64,000 nt of DNA, taken from contig CM102286.1 in the NCBI GenBank assembly GCA_046563655.1, forward strand, positions 3,286,001-3,350,000, read 5' to 3'. Below, one piece after another: positions 16,201 to 56,091 of the stretch. The DNA is from Yuukianura sp. NJ FZ-2021 (Eukaryota). Every line of letters begins with the position of its first letter. Within the stretch, counting starts at the first letter, position 1. A program made the translations under genes and the position numbers. The notes below the pieces were generated by a model. The model was not told the origin of the DNA and made no database searches. It worked only from the letters and a program-made list of their open reading frames with translations.

Positions 16201-19200
16201 CTGTAGAGGATTTTGGTAAGTACTGTATGCATTTTGTATGGAAAGTAACAACAGATCAACAGCACGTCTGGGAATCATTCTGTTGAGAGTCACACAATTG
16301 AGTTCAAAAGGGCAGCTCAGCAGCTACTGGAGCAATACTTATAGTTAACAATTCAGGCTTCAACTGTTTACCTACACGTTATATGGTTTCATGAAGTCCA
16401 ATTTTATTCTGGAAGTAGCTTATCATGTCAGGAAATTTAGATAATTTCCACAACCTTGAATATTTCATTTCACAGAAGTAGGCATTCCGAACGGAGAAGT
16501 AGGAAAAGCAACTTCAAGCTCATCCTTATTGGAGTTCATACGGAAGAATTTTTTTAAAAAGCATATTCTGAAATACTTCCAACCACTCAAGACTCACAAC
16601 AGCTGAAGCAACATTGGTGCTGAAATATTTAATAAAGATTTCAAGGACTTAAACTTAGTGTCAGTAGATAATTTAACGGCATGCGCACTTTACAAGTATT
16701 TCTCATTAGGTTCATCAAATATTTCGTATTTGGTTGAGTGGTCTGCATGCCAATTTCACTCCTCTTATGTCAGTGTATGCTTAAGTCGACCAAACGGAAT
16801 TTTGTTTTAACCAAAGTTTAGAAATATAATTCCCTCTTTACGTCTTGACTTTACACAGTTATACAGGGTAAATAATTCATGCATAAGTAATATGTAGCTA
16901 TTCTGAGCTTGTTTTTAGACCCTTAATACTGATTACACACTAGTAACACTATGCGTACAATGTGATTTCAAATTGCCTTTTCATATACTACGTTTAACAT
17001 GGATTAAGTGTACTTAAAGTCAAAGTCAAAATTTTTCTTCACGCACGCTCAGGCGCTAACAAGTATATTACATTATAGTATTGTTGTATACTAATTTAAT
17101 ATTACAACTGCATTGTTAAAAATATTTAACGCGACTTAATTGCAATTGCTACAGTAACAGTGTAGCTCAGTATGTTCCCATTTGTTGTCATAACCATTGC
17201 ACGATCTACGTGGTTTAGTGGACCACATTTAATGAAAAGTGGGTGTAGAGATTTGGCAACTCTATGCTCCACCGCCATCTTACTGTATCTTTTCCGAAGT
17301 TCAAAAGCATATTGCTCTGACAAGTGATAAACATCAGCCGCCGCAGTGAACGAAATATAAAAAAATGATATTATTACCGTGCAAATTAAAATTATCAAAC
17401 TCATGTACTGGAGTTTGCATCGAAACGCAACGCCATAGTACACCGAACAGAATACAGTACATGCTACCGCAAATGATCCTAATGGTAATTCTGCGTAATC
17501 ACTAATTATTAATGTGACGATGCGAATTGTCTGGTATCTTTGTATTTCCAACTTCGGATGACGTAGTGTTGTAAGCCGCTTACGTATTTGTGGAATAGAG
17601 ACCCAAAATAAAAGAAAACATCTCACAACGAAGGTTACGTTGACATACGGCATATGCTTGAGATATATTAGGTAAAGTTGGATAGCGCATACGGTTGCAA
17701 ATATGATTGATTGAGCGAGTACCAACCATAACGGTAAGTCATAATTAAAGATGCTCGCTATGTTACACGCTACCTTTTGAAGTAGAAGGTATACATCATA
17801 GTAAAGCAGCATGGCGACTCCTATATGCAAACAAACCAGACCACATTTCACTGCCGTATTGAAAAATTTCAGCAATCGTACACAGTTGACAGCCTCAGGG
17901 ATATGCAATGATCGGCCTATGCATAAAACATTAGTATGAGAGAGCGACTATGAAATAAAGCCAAATAAGCATTTTATACGATTTAGGCTTATGTGAGATT
18001 ATTAATTATCGTCAATGCAATTCACCTTCTTCCAATCTGAATAGAAATATGATTGTGCTGATCAGTTGTAGCCAGTACTCTCCTCTGTAGATGTTATTGT
18101 AGTCAAGGCTAATGTTTAACATACAGTAGCAAGAAAAACCTAATAGGATCAGGGACAGTACAGGATTAAAGTTTGATTTATAGTTAAACCATGCCAGTCC
18201 GACAAGTACAATAACAACGGCAATATCTAGTAGGAGGATACACTTTGAAAAAATTCGATACCGCTTTGACATGTCGAGAACATAATAGTTATGTGAATCG
18301 TCCCAAACTAAGGGATTTTGAAATGCCCTATGTGCCTCTTTTATGGACTTCAGTAAGAAGTTGAGGTCACTTCTAAATTTCATTGTAAACCGCCTGTAAA
18401 AACGTTTTTGAGCGTCGTTGTTGTGAGTTGCTTATTGTTCACACTGTAAAGTCAGAACTAGCTATAGATCGAATTTGCGAAATTATTTTGGTGGTGAAAG
18501 TATTTTCCAACGATTCTATTGCAAAATTTAGTAAATTGAGACAGGAAAAGGATGTATTTGATTATTTAAGCGTTTAGCTTCCAACTTTTTTTTTCCCTTG
18601 GCCGCCTGTAAAAATGTTTTTGAGCGTCGTGGTTGTGAGTTGCTTATTGTTCACACTGCAGAGTCAGAACTAGCTATACATCGAATTTGCGAAATTGTTT
18701 TGGTCGGGAATGTATTTTCAACGTTTGTATTACAAAATTTTGTTGAGATTGAGACAGGATTGATGGAAGAAAGGACCGGATGTTCGGATTATTTAAGCGT
18801 TTAGCTTCAAAATTTTTCTTCCTTTGGCCAGTCCAAATTTTGTTTTTAACTGGAAAGCTTACTTTAATAAATAATTAGGGCGCAAGTTGATCAGAAGTAC
18901 AACTTTAATTTTTACGTTTATTATGCGTTTTTTACTAACTACGTCCATTTTTCTTAAAATTTACAACTTAAGAACTTTTCTTCTGCCTTTGTGTCTTTAA
19001 AACCAAATTTGAATAAAAATTCTCTAAAAAATAATTTTATGTTGAACAAGGTTTTCGTATTTAGATCGTATCTTAATCTTAGATTTATTTTGATGTAACC
19101 AAAGAAAAGTTTTGCTTTACTAACATTGAACAAGTTTAACTTTACTAACATTGAACTAACTTGTGAACTAAATCGCTCAATGTGCAATTAAAATTGTGAC

Positions 19201-22200
19201 CATGTCGTTGACTATGTTTCCACTTAGTACTTAGGCTACCATACCATGATCTACAAGATTAATTGGACATCTTATGGTACGAGGCAATGACCTATCTATC
19301 ATGTTGTCATGTTCTCTCTTTCGTTCATTTTCTGAAGCTTAACGATAAGCGAGGGTTAGCACACAAAAGAGAAGCAGATTTAACAAAACATTCAAAACGT
19401 TTATTCGGGAAATCGGTTCAAGAATGGTTTCCATGAATGAAACCATGGTTCCATTAACATTGACTACCATTCCACGGTGTGTATGAAACTATGAGAACCA
19501 CACCTATGGTAAGGATAGTACATACGGTGTTCCGAGTTTAAAAGCAAATGCGTTATTTACCATTTAGTTGTTGACTATGACTACATTGCTTGCAGTGCAA
19601 GTAGAATTGTAACCATGTAGTTTATTATGTTCTCATTTACTTTGACTACCATTCCACGATCTACGAATTTAAGCGGACCACACCGTATGCTACATGGACG
19701 TAAGGACCTAACCTTCAGCCTTCCCAATCTGTCTCGTTCGTTCAATTTGCGTAGTTCAAAAATTAGCGCATTGGAGTTGGCATACACAAGAGAGGCCCAG
19801 GAATGACAAATATTTAAAAATATTACTACAAAGCTAACAAAAGAAATAATGAAGATCATGTATAGTGCTCCAAATCTGAACCCAACTGCATAGTACATGG
19901 AGCAAAATGCAGTGCATGCAGCAGTGTAGGACATTAATGGCAACATTATAAAGTAGCTTAACATTTCAGTAATTATGTAAATTTGTTTGTAGCGAATGTT
20001 TTCAAATTTCCTTTGTCCAATTATTTTCCGCCGACTATGTAACTGGTTAAGCGAAAGCCAAACCAAACTAGGTTGTTGAAATATTAGCGTTACCTCGATA
20101 TACTGAAGATGCTTGCAAGTCATAAGGTAGACTTGAAATGTAACAGAAACAACGGTAATTACAATACAGGCTAGTAGAATTGGAGGTACGTATTCAGTGA
20201 AATTTAAAAGTTTCACAATGGTCAAAATTATCGTTTTGAGTAAAAGTTCAATGTCATTGTAAAATACAATGAAAACAAAGACAACGGAGGCCATTGCAGA
20301 AAACTTCAGTCCAAAATAAAGTGATTTCATCACAAAGACACTGGTGCCAGACTCAGAAATGTATAGAGAATGTCCTAAAAATTACACAAGGCAAATGTTA
20401 GGTAGTCCGCCATTAAATGCATATGAAGTAAGGCTAAAACTATTTAAAAAAACAGAAACACGTTATACCTATTGCTAAATTTTAAATTTTGATATTGGTT
20501 TCAATTGTACCTTTTTTCAGCCTCACCAAAAACAGCAACCTGTTCATAACAATCAGCCAGTTGTCCGCATTGTAGATACTGCAGTAGTCAATGCTAACGT
20601 TATGACAACAGTAGCAACTAAACCCGAAAAATATGAGTGACAGCAACGGATTGAAGTTTGCTTTGTAGTTGACCCAGGCTAGTCCAAGAAGGTAAAAAAT
20701 AAGGCAAATATCCAGTACAAGGATGCAATTTGAAAGAATACGGTACTGTTTTGACTTGTTTAGAACAAAGAAGTCATGGGATTTGTTCCAAAGTAATGGA
20801 CTTTGAAACGTTTTGCGTGCATCCTCAATTGACTTTAGCAACACTTTGACATCTCGTCTTTTCATTTCAACGTATTTTGTTTATCAAGTTTTCAAAAAAA
20901 TTTCTAATGTCCAAGAAAATTTCTGGAGATTGTAGAATATTCGAAGTGTACAAATTTACTGGCTAAAGAAATATTTTTAGAGTGCTTCGATGTGATCTTT
21001 TGTAAGTAGATAAAAGTGCTTCCATAAAGCCAACTTTGACAGACGGGGAAAATTATTTGGACACAACTGCTTTTTTTAACATTGGAATTTACTTAACATT
21101 TTAAAGCATTTCTTTCCAAACATGGTCAATCCTCTAAAACAAGATTAAATTTCTTGAATATTTAAGTTAACTTAGGTTTGGGTTTCCACTTTGCAAAAGT
21201 TGCCATGTTTCTTTTCTTGTTAAATGTTTTTCTGGTTGCCTGAAAAAATTTCTCAAAATTATTTAGTAGTCTCAAGGAAGCGAAAACTGCCAAAAGCGTT
21301 TCTCTGTTGGCATTAGATAAACGATTAACCAAAATACGGGAGGGGACGGCCGGCAACCGTCGAGGCGACATTTGCTTTGAATACTCAGCCTCTCTTAAAC
21401 GTTAAATCATGTTTCGCTTTTGTATTTAAAAGATAAGAAGCTTTGCCTCGTGGATCACACCCCAGGAAATTGAAGAAGGCAGTGTAACTTAAAAGGAATT
21501 TCCAAAAAATTGGAAAAAGTGTTTGACGCCCATGAAAATCCGCAGGCGGACTGCTATTCTCCCAAACGCTGTAAGCAGAGGTACAATTTCACCAAAAGTA
21601 TCACAAACGTCAAAATCTCGAATGATCAAGTTTGTACTCTGAAAAGTTAGTGAACTGGGGTAAAATTAGTGACTGCAACCTCCAAACGATTGATAACCTT
21701 GCAACACGATATATTACAAGAAATTAAATCCTGAATTCATTGCTTTTTATATCGCAAACGCTTTTAAATTTTTGGAAACTCCTTTTCTCATGGCACAATA
21801 AACTCTTGCAAAGCAATAGTACGAACAAGCAAATATTGACGGTAAAATACTTTTATTATAAATATATTTAATTATACGTAATTATACTTAGTTAGACTTG
21901 ATTGAATTGCTACTCCACAGTTCTGCTACATGCACCGTATATGTCACAAGAAGTAATGCACACTGCCTCACATATTTGTAAACTAACGACTTTGTTTCAT
22001 ACAGAAACGTTAAGCCACAAAAACAAAGACCACAGAACATCAAATAAAAACACGTTCTAATATTTCCTTTTAAGTTGATCTTCTTAGGCAGAGTCAATAC
22101 TCTTTTTCTTTTCAAATTTTCTTTTAGAATTTCATCATTTGCCGTTGGATTTCGCACAGGTTGCCATTTCTCCCATAGTTGAAATATCCCAAAAGCCAAA

Positions 22201-25200
22201 TATTTTTGTAATTTTTCATGCACGAATTCGTCAAACATACAAAAGAGTTTTACTATTTCTTGTGATTGATTCCCTTTGCGAAAAAAAATTTGGGATTCTC
22301 CGTTACGACTATTTTGATGATGAGCTAAAAATAAGTTCAGATTAAACTCTACGCCCAGAAGTGCAATTTTCTTACAAGTTGAAAGCATTTGATCCAATTT
22401 TGTAAGAACAAAATGAGTATCAGTTTGGTGTGCCCAAATTTGAAAATATGAATATATATTTGCCATAACAAACTCATTTGGTACATTGTAATGCGGTTGG
22501 CGTTGATCAAGTTTTAATTTGCTGTCTGCAGTCGTGGATTTTTTTACGAGAGCATAGTGGTCGCACATTATGGCTTCGTGCAAGGTCGATGGTAGCAAAA
22601 CCTCCGACGTATTTCTGCAAGTTTTGGGAGTTGTTTGAGTCAGTTTCAGCAGTTGTTGCAATATTGGGTAATTTACGGCGTCAAGGTGAACGTGTTCGTA
22701 ATTTGTATTGAAGTAGGGTGTACAATTACAAACAACTTGGGTTGCGAGTTCAGTTGAATTTACATATGTAATAGTGTGGGCTGGCAATATTTCATCGTAT
22801 GGCAAGTATATGCTGGTCTCAAAATCTTGAATTAAAACAAAACCTTCTAACTGGTTGGCGGTAAAGAAAGTTTGACGAATCGGCAGAGGAGAGGATAAAA
22901 ACGAAACTACTATTCCTTTGTAGGCGTTTGTTAAAACAAGAAGTGCAAGAGTCCACAAAGTGACTACAACAGTTAAAGCGCTTTCTGGATTTTGATTTTG
23001 AGGAAATTTTTGAAAAACGTCAACTACGTTTAATGAAATTACAAAAAAGACGTTTACTGCATAACGCAGAAATTGTTTTACCGCTAACTCAATGTGTGTC
23101 CTAATGTAGAAAGCAGTACAAGTGAGAGCAACCAGAAAACAAAAGAGTGCAGCAGCAAACCAAGAGAACGTGTCAAATGGTGCGGCGTAAAATTCAAACG
23201 TGAGGACTTCACTTGTACCGTCACAAGTTAAGAAATTTACCTTTTCTGTACCAATGACTACAGCAAAACTTGTAGGTGCAATGTGACAATTGGGCGTAAT
23301 ACATCTAAAATCTCCTTCCTTGATTATCAATTCTCTCTTTGCATTAGGAGCTGTGAATTTATTGGCAATGCTCGAAAAAATAAATATTTGAACTTCGTCG
23401 AACACTAGCAATTGAAGGTACTCAAGGAATGTTAGGTTTGAGTTGAGTTGTGCCCGTTTGAATGGATTTAAATGTGTTTTGGATTCAATTTTGACAAATG
23501 GCCCAGTTCCAGGCTGCTCATAGTAGTACTTGTGATTTAGTATATTTCGAACCGCTGGAATTATTTTCATTACAGGAACAGCGAATAGCTGATGAGTGTC
23601 GTTTGTTTTGAAATTAGAAGCTGTGTTATGGTATGTTATATCAGTAATGTTTGTTGCACTATGATAATATTTTGTATTGGTAGTGAGAGGTGCAAGTCTG
23701 GAGAAAACAAGAGGGTTTCTACCAACTAACGAAAAGAGATCATGAAAAAATAAATGCGTACGAGGTAAACTAAAATCTAGGTAATGAACTATTACATTTA
23801 AAGTAAATTTTGAATCGAAGCTAATTAAGTCGTCTATACTTTTACCATGGTATAAGTTGACACAGCGTGGTTTAGACTTTGCTGGACCTTTAGTGAACAT
23901 GTTTTTACCAATGTAGTATGGAGTTACAAAGAATATTGCAAAATATTGGAGCTTACTCGTCCTTGTACCAGCACCAGCCAAATGTACTGCTGCAACTTGT
24001 TTCAGAAGTTTGTCGTTATGATTACAATATATCTTTTGCTTTGTTTTTAAGTAAAACAATTTTACTGGGACTTCAAAGCCTGCTGTAATCTCTGGGTGCT
24101 TGTCATCTCCTGCGACTAACAAATTGTCGCTGTGTGCAAATTGGTTTATCAGAAGATGAAGATTAGTCACTTGGAAAGAATTGTGACTAGCTGTTGCAAA
24201 ATGTACAGCAAATTGCGTTAACAATGTAACCACGGTTGATATACTGAAGAGGTCCATCTTGTCTTGACAAAAGTTGATGCTTACAACCAAGACAAACAAA
24301 AACTGACTGTCGAGCGTGCTTCACAATTTGACCTCCACTTTCAATATCAAAATTGGAAAACTCTAAACTGGAACGCCTTTACCCGTGTCAAATATTTCAA
24401 GATATCAAAATTGAAAAATCCAAAACTGGAACGCCTTTATTCGTGTCTTTTCAAGAAACTTTTAGCATTTGTAACCTTAAGTTTCACTTTAGAAGAGTCG
24501 CCATCGTTTCTGAATTTGTTAAATGTTTTTTGGTTGGCTGAAAAAAGTTCTCAAAATTATTTAGTAGTCTCAAGGAAGCGAAAACTGCCAAAAAGCGTTT
24601 CTCTGTTGGCATTAGATAAACGGTTAACAAAAATACGGAAGAGGACGGCCGGCTACCGTCGAGGCGACATTTGCTTTGAACACTCAGCCTCTCTTAAACG
24701 TTAAATCATGTTTCGCTTTTGTATTTAAAAGATAAGAAGCTTTGCCTCGTGGATCACACCCCAGGAAATTGAAGAAGGCAGTGTAACTTAAAAGGAATTT
24801 CCAAAAAATTGGAAAAAGTGTTTGACGCCCATGAAAATCCGCAGGCGGACTGCTATTCTCGTAGCCCATGTAAGCAGAGGCTCTCGCCTTGGTTCAAGTG
24901 CCATCAGGAAGAAAAAAGTTTTTCCTGTTACATTTTTTGCCTTACCGTATTGTTCTCTTTGTCTTTTTTTTTCAATTTGCCGCTTCTTTGCCCTGATTCG
25001 ATTTGAATGATTTCTTGGATCTTTGATGCAACACAACGTCTAACAATATACAAACAACAGAACACAGAAAGCAACCTTGTCTTCAAAATAAATTCAAAAT
25101 GGCTTTTTTGAATTTTTTTTTATTTTGGAAAAGAGTAGAAAATGCGTTTTGTTTTTTCACACTTGTGTAGGAACATGTTCAGAGGTGGGAATTCTTGTCA

Positions 25201-41800: not shown

Positions 41801-44800
41801 CGCTTAATGTATGTTGCCTGATATTACGCGTAACGCGCTGCGTTTGGAATTTTGAATTTTGCGCGTGGATAGTGTAAAACTAGCCTTACTGAAGTACAAA
41901 AGAACCTCAGTCCAATTTTCCAGACTACTTTGCATTTGGGAAGGCACTGCTCACATTAATTTCTTTGTTTACTTCCATCTGGTGAAAGTAACTTTCACTT
42001 TGCCTTTTCATGCACCACGACGCTTCCTCTTCTAGTTAACCGCTGCTAGAAAGCTCTTAAAATTCTTTTGAATTGGAACCATGTAGAAACATCGATATGC
42101 TTCACGAGGCTCTCTTCGTTGTCGAAGTCATTGCTTTCTAAATTTCCCTCTCTAAAGTCCAAATAGTTTCTTAATGTGCTAGGCACGATCCCCATAATTC
42201 CTCTTTTACCCTGAAATCAGAGAGCATCAGAACCGAATTGAGCTTCCTGCCTTTCCGCCCCTTTCAACTAAATCTCGATTCCGAAACTTCCTTCTCCATT
42301 TTTCCTCGTTTTATTTTAGTTCGATTTCCATTGCAACTGACACAGATTTTAACTTTGCACGATCTTCCGCATTCGGACGTTATGAGGAAGATGTGAGGAA
42401 CATACTAAAAAGATAGGCTACAAGTAGGCCAAGTAATGAACATTACTAAACAACTTTGAATTCAAAGAATCTTTCCTTTCCTTAGCACATCTCCAACGGA
42501 AGTTGGCTTCGACTCTATCATTTTGGAACCAAAACTTGTTCAAAGTGTAGCGCCAGAATTTAAAACAAGAATGCTTTTAGGAAACTTAACGCACAAAATT
42601 CTAAAACAGAGTGTTTCTACACTGTGCAACCTCTGTTCAAACTTTTTTGTAAACTTTCGACAAACTTTAATTTTCTTCTGTTCAAAATGTCACAAGAGTC
42701 CTTTAACAATTTAAAATTTCCAAACCGTGTGGTTGGCAATTCAAAGGAATTGTGAGAAATGTGCTGTTCTTCACAAAAGTGAATTTTTCTTCCACTGGAA
42801 TGCTGAATTTGACTTGCAAACTAACACGGAAGGAGCGAAGAGAGTCTCTTCCAAATACACTTTTGTCTTCTAAAAGCCTTTTTGCTTACAAGAGCTAAAA
42901 ACAGTTTACAAAGAATTTTGAAAACGGAGGCACAAAATATTCTAAGATATTCTGAAAACAAAAATTTCCTTTTAACCAGAAAAGAAAAAAAAACTTGCTT
43001 ACCTTGTTTTTTTTTGTGACTGAAGTTGTTTTTTGACCGCGCAAATTGGAAAACGGGCTGAAAGCTATATAACTCTTCTAGCTGTAGCTTTTTTTTAAAA
43101 AACGTTTTTAGAAACACTAAATTTTCTTTTGAAATGGTGCCGGAGCAAGTACAAAGTCAAAGGCTGCTTTTAAGTTTCCTTTCCAGCGGTAATTGCGAGA
43201 AAAATTGGAGAAATCAAAATTTACTTTCACCAATTTTAAAGTTTGTTCGTTCCTCTTTTCCTTTGCTGTGAGTTCTCACTCTAATGTTAACTTTTCAGTA
43301 TTTTTCGGAAGTGGGACTCATTAGCTGTTGGTTGCAGAAGGAAGTGGCAAGAAAAGATTTGTTGACACAATAAACTCTTGATGGAGAAACTTTCTTTTAA
43401 TTATTTTCAACTTGTTCTGAACAAAGCAAAAACGAAGTTTTGAACAGGGTTATGAAGTCCTTGGTTCGTGAAATCAGAGATGAAACAAAGCAAAATTCTT
43501 TAGCAGTACTTGTTTGGACAAACTCTCCCTCCTGGTCTTTCCCTTCTTCAAAAGTAATGATTTTCGGGGCGGGTGTTTTCAAAAATTGATGAAGAAGTTT
43601 GCAGCAACTGGAGAAAGTTAGAAGGAGTTTACTGGGACAAAAGAAGAAGCTGCGGGAGTATTTGAACTGACTGAAACAAAACCCTGGAAATTTTATTACA
43701 CCTTGAAGATGGATCACTTCCACGGTGGAGAAAACAACTTGTTTTCGGTAGCAGAGCTCCTAAACCCAACGACTTTCCACTTTCTCTCTCAATTCAACAC
43801 TGCCGAGAGACCCGGGAGACACATTTTCAGCTAAAGCTTGTAGAATTCGTGTTTCGGCCGTGGGAGGAAGAAAGATGCGTTTGAGGCAGGCTACAAGGCG
43901 CTGAAACTCGTTCAAAACTTGTGGATATGTAAAAGGTCTAACATTCCGTTCATTTTGAACATAGTATTACGTTTAGTAAGAAACGTTTTTAAAAATGTAG
44001 AAATTAGAAAAACTGAAAAAAATATGTTATTTAGCCTTCATTTTCGCTTCAGCTTTTCATTGCATGTTTCACTTTGCAAAAGTTTGGAACAGCGATAACG
44101 TTTTTGTAAAAACTTGTCTGAAATGTCCACTCCGCCTTTTTGATTTTAGATAGATGGACTAGTTAAGTATTTATGATTTCGACAAGAAATTTTCGCAGTT
44201 TTGACAAGAAATCCATTGAATGAGCCCATTTGACTTGCTAAGTGGAAAAGTGGACAACAAAAGTCAAAATGCTTAACTTATTTTGAGACGTACGGAACAC
44301 TAGCTCAAAACACGCCCAATACAAAAGGTAAAATAGAAAACTACAATTTTTTTTGAAAACTACATGTTGCAAAATTTGTTTCCGCAGCAAATAGGATGCT
44401 CCGATACAATTATAATCCTTGGGCTTACGTTTTCCACGTTGCTTTATGTTATGGTTAAAACTCGCTTTTAATTAGAAACGCGCCGGAGGATTTGATTGGC
44501 TTGAAGTCGAGAGTCTGATTGAAATTGGTGGCTGAAATGTGATATCCGATCACCCAACAGGAGCAATGCCATCCAGCATAGATTCTGTACAGATTCGTCA
44601 GGCAATGAGGAAAAGCGGATTAGTTCTGACACTTACGAGAGCGCTTAGGTTGACCACGAAATGAAATGAGGTAGACAATACATAGAAGATAGAAGTGAAC
44701 GCTGGAAACGCTGCAATTTCCAGTGTAAAGAACACAGTTTGAGGGGGTAACGACATCAGGGTTCTAACATGTTCGAATGTGCTGTCACTGGGAGAAGTGG

Positions 44801-47800
44801 TAGAGAAATGCACTAATCCCCAGCCGAAAGGGATTTGAATTTGGGCGGGAAAGTGTTGACGCAGCATTAACTAAACATTAGCTAAAAGCAAAAAATGCAT
44901 AGAAATTAAATTTGAAGTTAGAGTTACTATATGTATATGTGATTTTGCGTCACTAGAATACGCACACTTTCAATTGATTTCAATATTTCCAAAATTCCAA
45001 ACAACTTTCTTAGTTCTGAAGCCTATAGTTTATGGTAAATGGTGTTCAGTGAATCTATTTTAATCAATAAAACTAACAGAATGAATTACCGCTCTATAAC
45101 TATAACAAAAAAGTGCTGAAAAAACGACTAATTGTAAGCTTGACATTTTCCAGGAGGATTCTCCGTTTGAATAACATCGAACCGACTAATACTATAGTAT
45201 TTATAAAGAATAAATATAACAAATTTTGCCAAAATGCAAAAGAAATTATTTTCAGCTAACCGCTCATTCCATGAAGTTAAATTACTCAAAATTTTAAGTT
45301 AGCGGACATTTCTTTGTTCGAACAGACTAGGTATGCAATTATTTTGGCGAAACTCTTTTTTTTTGATTGAATGTTCCATTTTTATTATAGGGTGCCTAGG
45401 AATTTTAAGGAACTCGAAAAATGGACATTGGAAATCTCCAATAATCCAAAAATTACTCAAAGTATGATTTTTAGCCTGTTTATTTCTTCAACACTTAAAA
45501 ACTTAACCTAAAATTGTATTGAAAATTTTTCTTTGTGAAGGATTCTTTCACAACTTAGAAATAGCATTTCTGCGATAAGAAAATGAAAGGCATTGAAAAG
45601 TGAAAGAAAGAAGAGTTTGGTCGACTCACAATTTCACAAATGAAGAAGGTAACTATATATAGCAGAATTGCCAAAATTTCCAATTTGAATTACCGTTCTC
45701 GACCAATTTTTTTTTTCGAAAATGGAGTTTGAGAGGACGTAGGCTGCTGTAGTAGAAAGTAAGAGATGAAGCCATAATTCCATATCCTCCCTACTCAGCT
45801 AAAACTTCTATTAGAGAAAGTGAACTCAAAGATTAAAGAGATATGGGACATAACTTTGTTACAAACAGACGAAGGAAGTAACTAGAACAGAAATCGCTCC
45901 ACTGCCGCCTACAACTCTACTTTCATGGGGATACTTTCGGCAGTACTGAAAATAAAGTTATAGCCATCGCACGAAAATTGAACAATTCTAAAACGTTGCA
46001 CTTTCACATCAAGGTCAACGTAATTTGAAAATTTAGAAGAAAAAAAACGGACCTTCGCCAAGTGAAACAAATTGCCGTGGTTTGAAAATTCAAAAACGTC
46101 AATGGACTTTTAAAACATTCCTAATTCAAAATTTTACAAAACTTTAGTTATTTTAGGTTATTACAAGCACACGTTGGAGCTATATCTTTTCATAGAATTG
46201 AAAAAAATCACCAAAATTGACTTATTGTTATAGTATGATAATGTAGTATAGTTAATCATCTGTTTTATCTATTTTATCGCTTGACTATAGGTTATATTGG
46301 TTCTTTATACTTTAAACAAGCTGGAGCAATGTAATTTGATAGGTTATGAAACAGTTTTGGATGATACTTTAATTGGTGAGTAAATTTTATATAAATTCAA
46401 GCTTATTTTCCAATTGAGAAAGTAAACACTCTTTAAATATTTAAGAGTCGGGATTGTTCAAAATTAGCTAAGGTTATGTTTCAAATATTCGAAAAAATAA
46501 ATACATTTGAAATGGCTTATGACGATCTAATTCTACAAGGAGCAAAAAGAAAAAGCCAAGTTTTTTGAAAATAACACTCAACCACAAGTCTCTTCTTCGC
46601 TTTGATTTTTCTCCGCCTTTGAACTTTAATGAGCTTAAGATTTTGTTCTCTATCAAAGTTTATTAGTTAAGCTCTATACAAAACCAACAAGAACAAAATG
46701 AAAGGGAAACTTGCAAAAAATATAGAAAAAGATGAAAAGGAAGTCAGTAGTATTGCTTCGAGGTTTAAGGTTGCCATTTCCCTTGGAGATATTAAATTAA
46801 TCCACTAAATTGCCAACTTCTGCAGCTTTCTCCTTTCACTTCACTTTCTCCACCATGATTACAAACCCTGATTATGAAGTTTCCACTAGTAAGTTCGTTT
46901 TTTTTAATTGAGACCTGCATTGAATATAATTCAAATTTGGCAGTGAAAATTACAAGAATGAAAACAAATAAGAAGTCACGTGAAGCTGCAGAAGAACTAC
47001 CTGTTTCATTTGTATTTTTTATATATACCGTCTATAAACTTTGTATGACGCGTCGATTTCAAATTTCAAGACACGTACTACATTATTTCCAATTCTTCAA
47101 CGCAGCTTTTACTTTACTTTTAGTCAACCGTCGACTTTGACTGAAAAGCTGATGCTCGCCTCGCATGACTGACGTGAGATTAGTGTCAGTAGAGCAGGAA
47201 ATTCCAGCGACGAGGTTACACAAATTTGCAAGAATTGGTGGATTTACTTTCTCGTTTTTACAATCTACCGTTTGCGGGTTAGAGAGAAAGCAATTTAGAA
47301 ACAAAAAGACAAGAGGAAATTTAGACTGAAATGACATAAAAAACGGAGAGGACTGAAACGATATCCATTTAGACTATGCTCAAGCCTTAACATTTTGTAC
47401 TGTATGCAAACCCTAAACTGCCCAGTAACACTGGAGCTCAGGGACTGGTGAGCTTCATTTAATACTAGGAAAATCTCCAAAAAGTTCCAACTTTTTGTAC
47501 CCCCAGTGGAGACATTAGTTCCAGGGAAAAGTTACTTCCACCAACTCCAATTCCCGTCCACTGAAATAATGAGTAATAATTTTTAGGGAATCGGAATAAC
47601 TCTAAGCAGGATAAAAGTGGTAGTGAGACCAATGACTTTGAAAGTACACAGTTTAGTAAGGATTTGCATGAAATGATGGTCACTTTGAAGTGGAAAGCAT
47701 CAACTCGCAGATACCAAACTTTCATTTCTGTTTACAAATAGCACATAAAATGAAGAGCAAAACAAATGAATTCACAAATTTAAAACTGCCGCAGTGATAG

Positions 47801-49008
47801 AAAAAAAGCCAACGTAAGGAAAGTAAACAAAGAGTTCTGCTTTCTAAATTACAGTAAAGAAATTTTAGGACAAAAATTTATCTATATAAATTGAGAAATA
47901 AAAAAAAAGTTTTTTATGAGTAATTTTAAAGGAAGCCAATTTTTTAGCGTGTTTTGAACTTTGCAATGGTGAGGGCGGATGAAAACGAGAAAGTGTGACT
48001 ACAGATAAATATGAAAGTAGAGAATTATTTTGATTGGACAGCGGGAAATTAAATTAGGCTTGATTTGACTCTCTTGTTCTAATCTACTACGTTTTCAACT
48101 TTAGAATTTTGGAAAGATCCGGCTTATTACAGAAGATTACTGTTGGAATTTTAGAAATTTACGGGATTTTCAAAAAGTGGAAATAATTGTAACCGTGAAA
48201 GTGTTTCTTCAAACTTTCTTTTCACTCCAATTTCAAAAGAGAAAGTCAAGCCAAATTAGAGTATGAATTAATTACTACTATGAAGCAGAAGGAAGCTATG
48301 AATAGAGAGTGACATTAGAATGTCATACCTACAACTTTCTTAGGTCACGCAGTTTTCAACTCCTGTGAAACGGAGATCGTTATTATTTTCGCACTGTCCA
48401 CAAAAGTTTCAAAATATTGTTCAAAAATAATTCTAAAAGTTATGAAGTTTGACAAATCTTACTATTTTAAACCTCATTGTCTTTCTCGTTTTCTCAATTT
48501 CGACATAATTTGAAAAAAAATCCTCAGTATAACGGAGTTTCTTTCTGTTTCAAAATTGCCAAATTTTTTCAAATTGGATTTTAATTAGCTCTGACACGAC
48601 TGTTTTCCGTAAATCACTGCAAAACGTCTTCAAGCACTTCCGTAATAGATTTTAAGCAACTAAATTGTTTTTAACATTTTTTCGCAAAACTCACGAAATC
48701 ATTTACATTAAAAAAACTCTTTTTAAAAGCAACATGTAAACTGCAATAGGGTTTAAGTGTTTGCGAGCGTGGAAACATGATAAAGTACCATGGAACAAAA
48801 AATTTCCAGGAATTTCGTCTTTGTCCGCAAATCAGGATTAATAAAAACTGGTTTATGTTAAAAAATGCTTTTTCTAATAGTAACCTAAACGTGTATTATT
48901 GCAAAAGATGACACTAAAAGGCCTTCACATAATTGTTGGCTGACTAGTTGAACAACTTCGTAACCTTGAAAATAAAGAAGACGATCCCAATGTGTTAGAT
49001 CCACTTAC

Positions 49009-49086
49009 CTACACTAGTACTGCGACAGTGAACGTGTAGTCCTTGATCCTGCCAGAATCAGCAAAGTTGACCAGTAGACTAACTAA
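49009..49086 (-). promoter_or_regulatory. Candidate non-coding first exon/TSS on the minus strand (possibly the dpr12-like 5' UTR)
   Basis: Consensus AG|GTAAGT donor at 49009/49008; TTAGT initiator-like motifs near 49078-49086; stops in all three frames. Confidence 0.25.
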
Positions 49087-49283
49087 TTACAAACTAATGA
49101 GAATTATTGCTGATTTCCAAATACAATTTTAAACAACTTAAGGCAAAGAATAGCGTCAAAAACTAATTACCGTCGAAAGTGAATTCAACATGGACACGGT
49201 AGCACAATAATTTGATTGGTGCCAGTTTACTCTCATCCATTTTTGTCACTTTGAACTTGCCTTTTAAGCCTGAAACTCTGAAA

Positions 49284-52200
49284 ATGGCAACTATGATTTG
49301 GACAGTTCTAATATTTTTCATTATTGGAGAAATTAGGTAATAATTAGTATTTAAAAACTCATTTCGATTGAATTCAATACACTAATGCTTAACTTCGTTG
49401 TATTCATTTCCCAAAATTTTCAGTTTCTCGATGATTTACAAATGTTTTTTTTTCAGTGTTGAGTATGTTTGTGCTTATAAAAGTGGGAACAAGGCTCCAG
49501 TAGGCGTATTTTTGTTGGAACAACCCGAAAATCCAGAAGCTTTGTACGATCATCATGGAATTCCTCAACACTTTGAAGAGTTGAACAGAATTCATAAAGT
49601 AGAAGATAAAGTCAAGAGAGAAGCCATTTTAAATGAAAGAATTGTTCGTGTCAAGCGAAGTCCAAAACCTCAATTTTCTGGAGGTTTTGGCCTTAATACA
49701 AATGCTGGACAGAAACCAGGGTCCATCGGTGCTTCTGGTGGAATTAGCCTTGATGCACCTTCATTGCCCTCAGGCAACGCCCAAGCCGATCTATCGGCAG
49801 GAAGTTTGGATTTCGAAAGCACGGTGGGAGGCAGCGTCTCTGGTGGACTTTCGCCTGGTATAAATTTAGGTGGCAATATTGATTTAAAACAAGACCTAAA
49901 CGTTTCTCCCGGAGGTGGCGCTGCAGTGAATGTCCAAGGTGGAATTGCAGGAAATTCAATTCCTGGCGCTGCAGTTACGTTACCTTCCGCAGAAATCAAG
50001 TTGGATACAGGAAATTCCAATCTCGGTGCGGGATTGCTGTTACCTTCGGCAGGAGTCAAGCTAGATGCAGGAAATTCAAATCTTGGTGCAGGAATCAAGC
50101 TGAATGCAGAAAATGCAAGTCTTGGTGCAGCAGTTACTTTGCCTTCAGCAGGAATCAATTTGGATGCAGGGAACTCAAATTTTGGTGCGGGAGTTGCGTT
50201 GCCTTCGGCAAGAATCAAATTAGATACAGGAAATACAGGTGCCGCGGTTACACTGCCTTCCGCTGAAGTAAACCTGGATATAGGAAAGTCCGATCTTGTT
50301 GAAGCAGTTACGTTGCCCTCCGGTGAAGCCAAGCTGGATACTGGAAGTCTTTCGACACCGAAGTTGAACATTTCCGTAGTGTCAGTTGATACCGATGGAA
50401 AAACTACTGTTAAGGTACCCAACGTAAAATTACTTGAAGTTTCACATGCTGAAGGCAAACTTTTAGAATTACTTAACCAACAGCCTTCTAGCCCGCCTTC
50501 AACCGAAGAAGAAAATTCAACTGCAAAAGATGACAATGCTACCCAAAACGTAACAAGTCCTGCGACGACGCCAATTCCTACCGTCTTACAGACGACGACT
50601 GTCGACCCCCAAATCAAAGGTGGAGAATTGCTTCTTCCTCCAAATTACGAACTTCTTCAAATCCCAAAACCGGATTACGGTAAAAAAAATGAAACGGTAC
50701 GCAACTGCTAATATTACACGAACTAAAAATTTAAACTAAATTTTTACCAGGCAAATCCATCGGACAATATCTACCAGGTCCCCTCATATGCTTAGTATTT
50801 GTGAAAATATTGGGAATTTCTTCATTCAATGAAATTGACCGCGTAAGTTGAAAAAAATTCATCACGTTGATGTTACGACGTGTTCCACTGTTATTAGTCT
50901 ACGTAATGTGTTTTACAGTGTTAAATTTTCAGGTCTTTTTATTTCAATATAGACTGTAACCTTTGACACGGATTTTACGGTAGAATGGATTGACGGAGTG
51001 ATATTTGACATTTCGGACACATTTGATAGACCTCCGCCAACGAAAAAACAAGTTCTAGCGGCACAAAGAACGTTGAGTCCCGCATTTTTAAAAAAAGTTT
51101 GGAGACCGGATTTGTTTATGGGTAACACTAATGCAATGCATTTTGTAATGCAATTTTTGCAAATGTAATGCAAGTTTAATGCAAATGTAATGCAAGTGTA
51201 ATGCAAATGTAATGCAAATGTAATGCAAACGTAATGCAAATGTAATGCAAGTGTAATGCAAACGTAATGCAAATGTAATGCAAACGTAATGCAAACGTAA
51301 TGCAAATGTTATGCAAATGTAATGCAATCGTAATGCAAATGTTATGCAAATGTAATGCAAACGTAATGCAAATGTTATGCAAATGTAATGCAAACGTAAT
51401 GCAAATGTTATGCAAATGTAATGCAAACGTAATGCAAATGTTATGCAAATGTTATGCAAATGTAATGCAAATGTTATGCAAATGTAATGCAAACGTAATG
51501 CAAATGTTATGCAAATGTTATGCAAATGTAATGCAAACGTAATGCAAATGGTATGCAAATGTAATGCAAATGTTATGCAAATGTAATGCAATCGTAATGC
51601 AAATGTTATGCAAATGTAATGCAAACGTAATGCAAATGTTATGCAAATGTAATGCAAACGTAATGCAAATGTTACGCAAATGTAATGCAAACGTAATGCA
51701 AATGTTATGCAAATGTTATGCAAATGTAATGCAAACGTAATGCAAATGGTATGCAAATGTAATGCAAATGTTATGCAAACGTAATGCAAATGTTATGCAA
51801 ATGTTATGCAAATGTAATGCAAACGTAATGCAAATGGTATGCAAATGTAATGCAAATGTTATGCAAATGTAATGCAAATGTAATACAATTTTTCCCATGA
51901 AACATTCTGTATCTATGTCTTATTCTATGTAGATGGAGTGGCAAAGGTAGACCAACCGTCGATTACTAACAAAGCTGTATTGTCTCTGAAATTCAACAAG
52001 CTAACAGGATTTATTTCATACACGGTCAGGTGAGTATCGCATAGTTTTTGGCGATACAGCTTCCTAACAAATATAGTCATGATATATTCAGTATTTTATG
52101 AAAGTTGCCCGTTGCACATGCAAATTTATTCATAGAATGTCAGTAACCGTGAACTGTCCAATGTCGTTTGAGTACTACCCAGCAGATACTCAGCACTGTG

Positions 52201-53255
52201 ACTTTCGAATTGCAAGCTGTAAGTTAAACCTGTTTAACTGTAACTTGTAAACTACAGCGGGACAATTTGATTCCAATTTGTGGCGCTTAAAATCACATTG
52301 TTCAGATTCACATACCAAAGATGACATGTCCTTGGACTGGCTCGTGCTGGACTCAAAACACATTGGAGTGATTTTGGATGAAGACGAAGACGACAATTTT
52401 GACATTAAAGTGGACGGTCAAGACAAATTTGAATATACACCGAAGTGGAACAATGCAGCAAGTAATCTTACACGTGTCTTCTTACTTGTAGTTGTAGTTA
52501 AGACAAAAACATGCGGAATCACATTTTTTTTTCAGATTCCTCGTACGAAGTGTTGACGTTCTCTATCAGTGCACGGAGGAAAATCAGCTACCATTTATTT
52601 CAAACATACTTGCCCAGCGTATTTCATATTTTCGTTACATGGCTTGTATTCCTCATTCCATATACATTGTACGACTGTCGAATCGGCACAACTATGACTA
52701 CGCTACTCACACTTACCGCTATGTTCTCAGCCGTTAGAGAACAATCTCCACAAGTCAACTACATTAAGGTAATTACTAAATTTACAGCAGTTGAGCGTGG
52801 CAAGTGTTTTCATAAATTTTACCTACTACTAAAATGTTTAAGGCCATTGACTTGTGGATGTTGTCGTGCGTCCTGTTTATATTCCTGAACCTTCTTGAGT
52901 TGAGCGTAATGACTTGGTAAGTTCACTTTTCATGAAATTTAAGCAAATGAATAACAAATTTTGTTCAAACGGGATTAGGCTGAGGATTACTATTGAAACT
53001 TATGAAGAAATGGAGAAGAAGGCGGAAGATGAAGAATCACCACCAGACACTGAAAAGAAAGAACACCTTGACCTGGGTTCAAAAGTTACTAAATGGAGAA
53101 TCGAGAAATTCAGAAAAGTTTACTCGTACATTGATCGATACTCTTTTCAGAGTTTTGCAGGACTGTTTGTGTTGTACAACGTTGTCTACTGGACATGGCT
53201 GTTCGTTGCCTCGGGATATTTCACGTGGGTTCCAAATGAGCGCAACGAGTTATAA
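49284..53255 (+). CDS. Cys-loop (pentameric) ligand-gated ion channel subunit, GABA/glycine-receptor-like, with a long repetitive N-terminal extension (~818 aa)
   Basis: Exons 49284-49336, 49457-50679, 50751-50842, 50953-51121, 51933-52029, 52136-52218, 52306-52461, 52536-52768, 52843-52916 and 52979-53255; all GT-AG, phases compatible, total 2457 nt. Motifs: LLPPNYE..IP, VWRPDLF, Cys-loop CPMSFEYYPADTQHC, M1 LFQTYLPS, M2 RIGTTMTTLLTLT, PQVNYIKAIDLWM, M4 IDRYSF...NVVYW. Confidence 0.88.
49965..50350 (+). repeat. Coding tandem repeat, ~60 bp / 20 aa (GAAVTLPSAxIKLDxGNSNL), 6-7 copies
   Basis: Visible in the translation of channel exon 2. Confidence 0.9.
51129..51887. repeat. 11-bp minisatellite (GTAATGCAAAT and variants), roughly 65-69 units, within channel intron 4
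   Basis: Direct reading; variants include GTAATGCAAAC, GTTATGCAAAT, GGTATGCAAAT and GTAATGCAATC. Confidence 0.97.
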
Positions 53256-53391: not shown

Positions 53392-56091
53392 TTACTTCTG
53401 GAATATAAATTTAGCTTCTTGCCTGCCTGGTTTCACCGTAGAACATTTGCGAACAAACATTTGACTATCAGATCTTATCCACTAAATCAAAAAATGCCGA
53501 TGATTAAACCGTCATGTTGTCTATTGTTGTACGATTGAACGTCTTACCTTGTTGGCAACTGCAAAGTTTAAAATCAAAATATCCAGTAAGGTTAAGTTTA
53601 AACACAAATCGACTAATTGGACAGCTTGTTTTTAACTCACTGTATTTGGAGCCGTATACCACAGGACATCCGCCTAGAGAAAACATTAAAAGGCCTATTA
53701 ACATATACGTTAGGAAGATACTGAAGTGAGTTTGGGTTAAGTTCCTAATACCATGCAGTGATTTTATATCCAATGAGCCATCGGACAGTAAATTGTTCCA
53801 AAATACGGCAGAACCTTGAAAAACCGAATTTTTAAGCCCCATATCCTGAATTTCTTTTTTGTAAACCGAATATTTCTTCGGTGTAACCTTACCTTTGATG
53901 GGCTGTGCAGCAAAATTTAGTTCTGGAAATGCAGTAGCTCCACCGACTTCCACTTTTGATAACTTTAAAAAAATATAAAGTTTAGATTGTTTTTAATTAC
54001 CTATAATAATTCAATGTAAGTTTAATTACATAAATAAATTTAATTTAACAGTTTGTTTTTATAATCTTACATAAATCATGAAAGTTGAAATCCGGTCTCC
54101 TTGTCTTCCCAGAAAAGCGGCAATGCGTTCTTTGCTTAATTTCTGGAAAAACATACAAAAGAAAACTCTCCCGTATTACTAAACATTAGAATTTTAAAAA
54201 AAGGGTTATAAGCACATGCCTCTAGCGTTCCAGTACCACTGGCAATTGCATCGTAGTGTGGACCATAAAATGCTCCAGGATTATAGTTTGCCACTTGCAT
54301 TTCTTCTGCCGCCTGCACTCCTTGAACATTTAGTCCAGTCAAAATTTCAATTCTTTTTGAAATATATCCAAATGGATTTCCAAGTACATGATCTCGGTAA
54401 AACAAACTGGAAGACGTTCGTCCAGCATGCGGCTTTCCACTAGAATTTTCTAGTTCTACGCTACTTCTCTCCAAAAATGGATCCGAATTTTGACGCAAAG
54501 TATTGGCTTCATGATTACTCAAAAAATCGTAGATTTGGACAATTTTTGGACCCAAATTTAGCAACTCCAATTTATATGGCTGAAGATACAAATATGGGTT
54601 GTTAGATGAAGAGTACTCGCAATACAAATCTTTCTTTTCAGTTGGTTCCTGTGAAACGTTCAATTAAAATTTTCTAAAACATTTTGGAATTTTGATTAAT
54701 TTTGTTTCAAAAATGTTCTTATATTACTCTTAGATCTCCCTTTTGGCAAATTTGGTTGAACATAATTGACAGTTTTCCTTGTCCATCAGGATTCATTTCT
54801 GTCAAAAATTCGTCAGTGCTTATTGACCGTTTGTTTCTGTACGATTTACTTTTGATGGAACCGAGACGCCGTGAAAAATGGAATGGATTCTTTTGGCGGG
54901 AAAATGTTCCATTTGCCAAGTGGAAGTCGTGCTAAAACAAACGCAATGAAAACTTTCGGAGCAAACTTTAAATTCATCTATAAGTACCAACAACATGAAA
55001 AATCATGCTCAAAATTTTGTCGATTTTTTTCAATTCCGATTCTTACCCTTTCAGCAACTTTCTTCATTTTTTCCTTCACTTCCTTTTCAAATTCTAAATC
55101 TCTCTTAGCCAATTTTCGTAAGCGGCTCAGGCAAGCGTCAAAGTGTGGCAAAGCCAAAGTGTACAAGGCTTTGCGGTAACTATAATTTCCCAAGTAGTAC
55201 AAATCCTCTGCTGTGAGTCCTGAATTTGTTTTAAGTCCCAACAACTTCCCTTGAGCTAACTTCAAATACAAATGTACGTGAAAAGAAACGTCAAATTTGT
55301 TCCCGCCAAAGTTGAAAAACAAATACTACAACTGATTTACATTTTTAGCCGAAATGTTAAATATTTGTTGTAGTCGAATTATTCCCATTTGAGAATCCAG
55401 TACGTCCTGCTCTTTAGGGTAGTCGATACGACTTTGTAATGACTTCAGGTTTGATATTAAATCTGCGGAAAGAATTTAACCATAACGTTTTTTTGAATGT
55501 TGAACAAAAGATATTTTTTTGAAACTTTGATATCACAAATTTTCGAGAAAGAATTTAACCATAACTTTTTTTTGAATGTTGAAGAAAAGATATTTTTTTG
55601 AAACTTTGATATCACAAATTTTCTTCACTTGTAGTAACTTACGGTGATTGATGGTTTCACCCAAACCCTCAAAAAGTGGATTTAAATCATTTCTGATCCG
55701 TTGAAACAGCTGAAACACTTCTATCTGACTTGCGCCTTTGGCTTTTAACGCATTCCTATTGTCGTTGACCTTCCCTTTGATATTTTCCTCAAAGTTTGGA
55801 TTTCCAACAAATCCGGCTTTTTTTGTGTACCTACCCAGAAATTCAACGGTGAAAGTATATTATAGAAAAAATATTTATAAAAATAACTTACGCTTTGATA
55901 TTTTGCAGCTGAGTTTGTGCTTGTTCCAAATATTTGTTGAGCAACGCCAAAATTTTTTGCTCGTGCAAAACCAACTTCTGGACAGCATACGTCGAAAAAG
56001 CATAACCGACGCCCACCCCATTGTCTGAGTTTCCCAATGTCAATCTATTACAGAAGCTTAGAATTAAAAGGACGGCAATGAATGGAGACAT
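53392..56091 (-). CDS. P4HA: Prolyl 4-hydroxylase alpha subunit (~564 aa)
   Basis: Exons 56091-55892, 55830-55643, 55462-55341, 55259-55047, 54931-54728, 54648-54220, 54142-54071, 53962-53893, 53814-53752, 53673-53641, 53558-53548 and 53481-53392 (1695 nt). Signal peptide; motifs IIRLQQIF, PYLYLQPYKLE, QVANY..G.FYGPHYD (HxD), GDRISTFMIYLSKVEVGGATAFP, KGSAVFWNNL, SLHGGCPVVYGSKYIANKWIR. Confidence 0.92.
55468..55623. repeat. 79-bp tandem duplication in P4H intron 2
   Basis: GAAAGAATTTAACCATAAC...GATATCACAAATTTTC starts at 55468 and again at 55547. Confidence 0.9.

Follow-up and report, generated by a model that had tools for sequence, protein, structure and literature searches.

A predicted springtail Cys-loop receptor subunit gene with a long, repeat-bearing exon ahead of the ligand-binding domain

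Introduction

Long N-terminal regions on animal subunits of the pentameric ligand-gated (Cys-loop) ion channel family are already on record, because the Drosophila Dalpha5 subunit was cloned as a cDNA of 807 aa whose N-terminal region is described as about 300 residues longer than usual (PMC3444433). Several hundred additional residues on the extracellular side are rarely found in animal subunits, and Dalpha5 is the one printed example that we found (PMC3444433). Among prokaryotic members, DeCLIC carries an extra module, consisting of two folded jelly-roll lobes, ahead of the ligand-binding domain (LBD) on the outer side of the membrane, and N-terminal accessory domains are stated in reviews to be a bacterial feature of this channel family (PMC9897478). 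The subject of this study is a predicted gene at positions 49284-53255 of a 64,000-nucleotide stretch of Yuukianura sp. NJ FZ-2021 (assembly GCA_046563655.1, contig CM102286.1, positions 3,286,001 to 3,350,000 of the forward strand), hereafter called the window. Its product would resemble Dalpha5 in carrying a long N-terminal extension on an animal Cys-loop subunit, and DeCLIC in bearing additional sequence ahead of the LBD. It differs from Dalpha5, a cation-channel (nicotinic) subunit, in that its channel part best matches GluCl, GABA-A beta, and GlyR, a comparison that concerns the channels and not the extensions, and it differs from DeCLIC in that no fold, family, or homologue was found for its extension. 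It is also unlike the solved chains of GluCl alpha, GlyR alpha, and GABA-A beta, in which the match begins near residue 26-70.

The most similar annotated proteins are Folsomia candida models annotated as 'glycine receptor subunit alphaZ1', of which P0005 (XP_021951306.1, 683 aa) shows 39% identity with the window model over 416 aa, starting from model residue 405. P0005 shares with the window the order of signal peptide, charged leader with KR sites, Thr/Pro-rich stretch, a 'GEL.LP..Y..L.IPK.D.GK' segment, and channel. In contrast to the window protein, its leader comprises ~270 rather than ~400 aa, with a Pro-rich stretch and without the 20-aa repeats and the Gly/Ser region; it did not appear among the matches when exon 2 of the window gene was the query. 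As far as full-text searches show, neither the Cys-loop receptors of springtails nor mucin-like leaders of such channels have been treated in print, a paper that we consulted being confined to GABA-receptor clades, and the long-leader models of Folsomia are public but unremarked. What is new here is the longest leader observed in this set of proteins, a repeat module of its own, and the placement in the GlyR/GluCl-like branch. An earlier note on this DNA had proposed that an apparently 'orphan' open reading frame (ORF) is in fact exon 2 of a pentameric ligand-gated channel gene, a proposal that our comparison of sequences and homologues supports.

Results and discussion

Probable assignment of the long upstream exon to the channel gene

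Ten exons on the + strand join into an open frame of 818 codons, with GT-AG at all borders and donors starting with GTAA in eight of the nine introns. The intron sizes lie between 62 and 120 bases, except for intron 4 (811 bases), and the surrounding DNA is AT-rich and eukaryotic in character, with a GC content of 0.33-0.40 and short introns. Exon 1, exon 2, and the eight channel exons give exactly the 818 aa that had been predicted for this locus. We estimate at roughly 0.8 the probability that a single ten-exon gene, with the extension ahead of the channel, encodes this predicted pentameric ligand-gated ion channel subunit; the value refers to the gene model alone, and functional proposals are graded separately.

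The evidence that joins the long exon to the channel is indirect but, in our view, strong, and it follows four lines: the dependence of each part on the other, the coding character of exon 2, the homology of its end, and the architecture of the nearest annotated relative. On its 5' side, a TAA at 50732-50734 closes the reading frame of exon 3, and between 50680 and 50842 there is no ATG in this frame, all three ATGs present being out of frame. Translation of the channel therefore depends on a coding exon further upstream that ends in a phase-1 donor. Exon 2 contains no in-frame Met, and residues 5-511 of the model are entirely devoid of Met, which means that exon 2 itself depends on exon 1 to supply the start codon and signal peptide. 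Judged from the DNA, the channel part would thus be translatable only when joined to the long upstream exon. Direct splicing of exon 1 to exon 3 is ruled out, since the phase-2 end of exon 1 does not fit exon 3, which requires phase 1. The ATG of exon 1 is the first of its frame, and the best 10-mer hydropathy of the exon is 3.0. An in-frame ATG at ~49431 of the unspliced frame (MIYKCFFF...) was set aside as a start in favor of exon 1, whose hydrophobic core is far better.

Exon 2 is coding in this frame, as judged by its long open frame, its GC contrast with the introns, and an excess of third-position changes among its repeats. The earlier note had placed a 437-aa ORF at 49398-50711; the end at 50711 holds, whereas the stop-to-stop frame begins at 49386 and comprises 441 codons. 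At the stop-codon frequency of the window (0.056), the chance that 441 codons stay open is about 7.5e-12. The GC content of exon 2 is 0.447, compared to 0.25-0.30 in the introns, and amounts to 0.575, 0.455, and 0.312 at codon positions 1, 2, and 3, respectively. When the five full repeat units are compared with one another, the differences at codon positions 1/2/3 number 48/50/100, and 62 of the 139 differing codons are synonymous. On the opposite strand, exon 2 is overlapped by an open frame of 324 codons (49670-50644), which we take for a side effect of the biased repeat sequence, given that splice sites, homology, and the third-position pattern all belong to the + frame.

Homology places the end of exon 2 with the channel. 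Of 23 local BLAST alignments between the spliced model and the relatives that we fetched, 10 already begin at model residues 364-415, ahead of the exon 2/3 junction; for example, the alignments start at residue 405 for P0005, 408 for P0009, 407 for P0010, 409 for P0006, and 404 for P0012. The 'LP..Y....P' segment at the end of exon 2 is aligned in all ten rows of one alignment, its conserved Tyr is aligned in 16 of 16 rows of a separate alignment, and ELLLPPNYELLQIPKPDYGK of the window model aligns with ELYLPEDYNNLEIPKLDAGK of P0005 as well as with similar segments in other relatives. A HMMER profile built from 15 relatives, with the window model left out, gave 361.7 bits for the sequence from residue 395 and 345.1 bits for the sequence from exon 3 onward, whereas 20 control constructs with a shuffled tail reached a mean of 347.7 and a maximum of 351.9 bits; the true tail adds 14-17 bits over shuffled ones.

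At the junction itself, the last base of exon 2 (G, 50679) is followed by GTAAAA, and the acceptor AG lies at 50749-50750, which defines a phase-1 intron of 71 bases and confirms on sequence the splice sites that had been proposed. The peptide quoted across this junction in the earlier note does not stand, since it skips nine residues (KSIGQYLPG) as if a second in-frame AG at 50776-50777, which would drop them, were used. With the acceptor at 50750, these residues lie between ...PKPDYG and PLICLV. We prefer this predicted acceptor because Folsomia P0005 keeps a comparable spacer of 11 residues at the same site (AGKLFGIKVSKLS) with the same start (GK.xG).

The channel part

Residues from about 405 to 818 form an intact Cys-loop receptor subunit, in which the sequence features of a pentameric ligand-gated channel, namely the LBD, the Cys-loop, and M1-M4, are recognizable. 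The Cys-loop and the four transmembrane segments are thus present as anticipated, with 13 residues between C552 and C566; hydrophobic 19-mers start at 647-652, 698-714, and 785-786, and M1, M3, and M4 are hydrophobic and M2 is amphipathic. Pfam and database searches were run with single exons, and the spliced 818-aa model was used for local BLAST, MAFFT, HMMER, and IQ-TREE. With exon 6 alone, Neur_chan_LBD (PF02931) was matched on a 27-aa piece with an E-value of 1.5e-05 and 25 bits (cut-off 26). Exon 8 matched Neur_chan_memb (PF02932) with 31.8 bits (cut-off 28.1), and exon 10 matched the same family below the cut-off (15.7 bits). Pfam reported nothing for exons 3, 4, 5, and 9 searched singly and only chance-level hits below the cut-offs for exon 7 (SLT_beta, E 0.041; P53_tetramer, E 0.12). 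When exon 4 (56 aa) was searched against longer proteins, not one of the 13 candidates had an E-value of 0.01 or below. The spliced model scored 367 bits against the profile built from 15 relatives, each of them assigned to PF02931 by precomputed annotation (nine were re-scanned), and all 23 local BLAST comparisons with relatives gave E at most 2.4e-26.

By its nearest sequence relatives, the predicted channel falls into the GlyR/GluCl/GABA-A-like (anion-channel) branch. With exon 8 as the query, 119 distinct solved chains had E-values of 0.01 or less, the lowest being those of GluCl alpha (1.3e-10) and GABA-A beta-2 (1.9e-10), with beta-3 and GlyR alpha also found, and P0005, taken as a Folsomia stand-in, matches GlyR alpha-1 with an E-value of 3.9e-43 over P0005 residues 301-584. 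The source names of the relatives fall in the same branch. In anion-selective members, M2 has the motif Pro-Ala-Arg at its inner mouth. The corresponding end of M2 in the window protein (window 52650-52680, residues ~667-676) reads YDCRIG, where four Folsomia relatives have VEARIG. The longer context before M2 reads ...LYDCRIG in the model and ...PARMVEARIG in P0005, so that the Arg is kept and an acidic residue stands two places earlier. Ion selectivity in this springtail clade may not be of the textbook type.

Organization of the N-terminal extension

The extension comprises about 380 extra residues ahead of the LBD and, being placed after the signal peptide and before the LBD, would be extracellular; a signal peptide in this position is consistent with the extracellular location of the LBD. 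The layout foreseen in the earlier note was borne out with respect to the signal peptide, the propeptide-type sites (KR, RVKR), the Gly/Ser-rich region, and the Thr/Pro stalk with NST, NAT, and NVT sequons (Table 1). Its count of 6-7 copies of a 20-aa repeat is likewise matched by the array, which consists of six units of 18-20 aa (five of them exactly 20) and one unit of 13 aa, and in which Tandem Repeats Finder detects a 60-base period with 77-83% matches. Six of the seven N-x-S/T sites of the whole protein fall within the extension, and the S+T+P fraction reaches 0.38 over the 60 residues preceding the conserved motif. The expectation that the LBD would begin only at about residue 405 agrees with the gene model, the alignments to relatives, and the profile scores. 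We read the extension as a fast-evolving low-complexity region that was enlarged in this lineage by tandem duplication within the exon.

The single long intron of the gene is explained by a minisatellite that lies in intron 4, for which Tandem Repeats Finder gave periods of 33 and 44 bases, 17-22 copies, and 89-92% matches. The same minisatellite yields long spurious open frames on both strands.

Table 1. Predicted exons and sequence features of the channel gene (window coordinates and residues of the 818-aa model)
Feature	Coordinates	Residues	Strand	Description
Exon 1	49284..49336		+	start codon and signal-peptide-like hydrophobic N-terminus (MATMIWTVLIFFIIGEI); donor GTAATA; phase 2 end
Exon 2	49457..50679	18-425	+	1223 bases; entire N-terminal extension and first conserved channel segment
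Exon 2 tail	50616..50679		+	last ~21 codons (ELLLPPNYELLQIPKPDY), conserved in relatives just before beta-1; donor GTAAAA after G, phase 1
Exon 3	50751..50842		+	spacer and beta-1 strand; no in-frame ATG
Exon 4	50953..51121		+	LBD from beta-2 to WRPD motif
Intron 4 minisatellite	51144..51888		.	745 bases, noncoding; 11-base TGCAAATGTAA-like unit (Tandem Repeats Finder)
Exon 5	51933..52029		+	LBD; homologous stretch opens contig L001
Exon 6	52136..52218		+	Cys-loop, C552-x13-C566, with YPADTQHC
Exon 7	52306..52461		+	LBD, C-terminal part
Exon 8	52536..52768		+	pre-M1, M1, M2
Exon 9	52843..52916		+	M3
Exon 10	52979..53255		+	short M3-M4 loop (~55 aa), M4, stop TAA 53253-53255
Signal peptide		1-17 (or to about 24)	+	hydrophobic N-terminus
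Charged leader		~25-85	+	KR at 71-72, RVKR at 82-85, then SP
RVKR	49647..49658	82-85	+	predicted furin-type processing site at end of charged leader
Gly/Ser/Asn-rich low-complexity stretch	49659..49964	86-187	+	
Tandem 20-aa repeats	49965..50357	188-318	+	consensus close to GAAVTLPSAEIKLDTGNSNL
Linker		319-358		
Thr/Pro/Ser-rich stalk	50478..50603	359-400	+	sequons NST, NAT, NVT
Conserved pre-beta-1 segment		~405-425		

Springtail relatives

A word search with the exon 8 region yielded 23 related proteins. Those with a named source belong to springtails (Folsomia candida, Allacma fusca, and Orchesella cincta) and, after these, to a copepod, which points to a springtail or a close relative as the origin of the window. 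The best match, P0004, is a 269-aa fragment with 85% identity over the exon 8 region and 64% identity over 271 aa. Its contig (L001, 1107 bases) has one intron of ~58 bases at the border of the window's exons 5 and 6, none at the four later positions, and ends soon after AATAAA; it looks like a partly spliced transcript of an orthologue from another springtail, or a gene with fewer introns. L001 supports the joins of exons 6-10 and ends short of the 5' part of the gene.

In P0005, the Pfam LBD begins at residue 297, and the region before it holds a signal peptide and a charged stretch that includes KR sites, as well as one stretch rich in Thr and one rich in Pro. P0027 (OXA55410.1, 718 aa) is an independent annotation of the same locus, identical in the first 476 residues; the only difference is a stretch of 35 residues where the window gene has its exon 7/8 border. 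In the IQ-TREE analysis, the window protein groups with P0004 (100/100), P0005 joins this pair (84/81), and all three lie inside a springtail clade of seven rows (100/100), which also includes P0006 with a Thr/Ser/Pro-rich leader of ~100 aa.

The length of the leader varies widely among the relatives, and the window gene is the extreme, with the longest leader in this set. The conserved Tyr is located at residues 29-42 in six compact relatives, 66-135 in eight others, 278 in P0005, and 415 in the window protein; the positions in the compact relatives fit the earlier statement that animal subunits usually start their LBD soon after the signal peptide. The springtail GlyR/GluCl-like clade would thus be one with long leaders that vary between species, extended here by a recent repeat expansion in one exon. 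The resulting natural series, with ~60, ~100, ~270, and ~400 residues before the conserved Tyr, may offer a handle on the role of such an arm in trafficking, localization, and gating. To annotators, the locus is a warning that its long repeat ORF is not an orphan gene.

A motif of the type R-x-[KR]-R-S-P is present in the leader of the window protein (49647-49664), and related motifs, RLRRSPE and RSRRSPE, occur in P0012 (~113-119) and P0014 (~63-69), respectively. P0012 and P0014 are springtail channels of another clade, and their motifs are found ~20 residues before the conserved Tyr. These sequences hint that convertase-cut pro-regions may be common in springtail subunits.

Similarity searches with the extension

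No Pfam family was found on exon 2, and a word search against longer proteins (714-2035 aa) gave no match at E at most 0.001. Comparison of exon 2 with 1.84 billion representatives produced three matches only, all to vertebrate AHNAK-like proteins and all aligning repeat on repeat (4.3e-75 over 23 stretches, 8.0e-21, and 7.1e-05), with an identity of 26-28% and common words such as VTLPSAEI; the high summed scores arise because scores add up over many repeats. The AHNAK-like proteins are giants of 1171-5932 aa, and the two that we scanned (P0002 and P0003) have an N-terminal PDZ domain, whereas exon 2 lacks PDZ according to Pfam and follows a signal peptide ahead of an extracellular domain. 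Membership in the AHNAK family was rejected on these grounds, and the match probably reflects a likeness of periodic strand-like repeats, that is, convergence and not common descent. In metagenome contigs, none of 159 pattern matches to exon 2 was confirmed, and the protein Atlas search with exon 2 gave no usable match. AlphaFold2, run on exon 2 alone as a single sequence, returned a pLDDT of 38.3 (38-47 over the repeats) and a pTM of 0.26, values that are uninformative on fold or disorder, with short strands placed in the repeats of this low-confidence model.

Since no relative of the extension was found in these searches, conservation of the repeat module across species is not established. 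The absence of a Pfam family, a homologue, a usable Atlas match, and a confident fold also means that nothing indicates a folded sensor domain, and the earlier functional idea, which envisaged an extracellular tether or sensor with mechanical or tethered-ligand gating, has no support in its 'sensor domain' form.

Alternative interpretations

The arrangement of one gene has to be weighed against two transcription units or isoforms, in which exons 1-2 would encode a secreted repeat protein ending at TAA 50711 and the channel would be spliced from another first exon to 50751. The unspliced frame does continue for 32 bases beyond the donor to its stop, and in our scan of 44001-49283 two candidate exons combined an ATG with a GTAA/GTGA donor in phase 1; the first (46874-46979) has a moderately hydrophobic start (2.15), and the second (48777-48879) is hydrophilic. 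A channel made from such an exon would lose the conserved pre-beta-1 segment, which is sited on exon 2. No AATAAA or ATTAAA occurs within 489 bases after TAA 50711, the donor GTAAAA resembles the other donors of the gene, the 71-base intron is of typical size, and the closest Folsomia relative has twice been annotated with a continuous long leader. With this evidence on both sides, we regard separate units as improbable and retain the single ten-exon gene. Several observations nevertheless weigh against our account. Retention of intron 2 would lead to the stop at 50711 and a secreted 437-aa protein as a possible isoform, and the long-leader models of Folsomia are themselves predictions. The sister position of P0005 is moderately supported (84/81), with a long-branch warning from the tree tool. 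The likeness between the charged leaders of the window protein and P0005 is marginal, with a local score of 43 that was reached by 3 of 500 shuffles; for five other relatives there was no signal in this comparison (24 of 500 shuffles for P0006, 114 for P0010, 172 for P0012, 281 for P0008, and 437 for P0009). Homologues of the extension, beyond the AHNAK-like repeat matches, were absent from the representatives and from the word and metagenome searches, and furin cleavage, glycosylation, and disorder are properties that we infer from the sequence.

If the gene model is right, the repeats could also fold into an adhesive or binding module rich in strands, such as a solenoid or rod, that docks to matrix or cuticle or transmits force, in line with the earlier note. 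The regular 20-aa units with alternating hydrophobic positions, constrained at the protein level as the third-position excess indicates, speak in favor of this, together with the short strands in the low-confidence AlphaFold2 model and the repeat-level resemblance to AHNAK-like scaffold proteins. On the other hand, neither a Pfam family nor a usable Atlas match was obtained, the pLDDT over the repeats is uninformative, and the AHNAK-like matches are vertebrate PDZ proteins whose similarity is probably convergent. The repeat module is, moreover, missing from P0005, whose leader is Thr/Pro-rich and charged, which argues against a conserved docking function. We therefore consider a folded module unlikely. 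Rather less probable still is that the extension is a pro-region that is wholly removed or releases peptides, leaving a working channel of ordinary size, with the leader serving in folding, trafficking, or a secreted role. This would agree with KR 71-72 and RVKR 82-85 in the model, with the four KR sites in the P0005 leader, and with the RLRR and RSRR motifs of the other springtail clade; against it, no dibasic site occurs between model residues 86 and 486, and convertase cleavage would therefore take away no more than the ~65 residues that follow the signal peptide, with ~320 staying in place.

Proposed origin, processing, and function

For the retained part of the extension, a flexible glycosylated arm is plausible, and we do not believe it to be a ligand-sensing domain. 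An ancestral gene may have had a shorter, charged, Thr/Pro-rich leader, of which the ~270-aa form would still be seen in the nearest Folsomia relative, and the extension may subsequently have grown in place within one exon by tandem duplication of 60-base units. Once the signal peptide is removed, a furin-type convertase would probably cut between RVKR and SP and release the first ~65 residues. The mature subunit would keep a flexible, N- and O-glycosylated arm of ~320 aa, glycosylated heavily in its stalk and present five times per channel. Such an arm could serve as a spacer or anchor that holds the channel in the glycocalyx, cuticle lining, or matrix, or could limit access to the binding site. 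Given a correct gene model, the glycosylated spacer or anchor is our best functional guess, a tentative one that falls short of even odds. It is doubtful that the extension is a working accessory module, with five glycosylated repeat arms tying the channel to cuticle or matrix or tuning gating or ligand access. If true, such a module would be a eukaryotic counterpart of N-terminal domains that have so far been described only in bacterial members, and its origin would lie within springtails, in the expansion of a pro-region.

Other observations in the window

Three further regions of the window contain long open frames, all on the - strand. Three tandem gene copies, each with an open frame of 266-279 codons and one of 132-180 codons, are located at 14880-20880 and look like related multi-pass membrane proteins; their three long frames were without a Pfam match at E at most 0.01. 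Directly beyond the 3' end of the channel gene, at 53504-54663, open frames of 162 and 175 codons, searched stop to stop, had no Pfam match at the same threshold; by eye, they are reminiscent of a 2-oxoglutarate dioxygenase (prolyl hydroxylase-like). An uninterrupted open frame of 810 codons with hydrophobic segments lies at 21888-24320; it gave no Pfam match at that threshold either, and our impression by eye is of a likeness to ionotropic receptor-like proteins.

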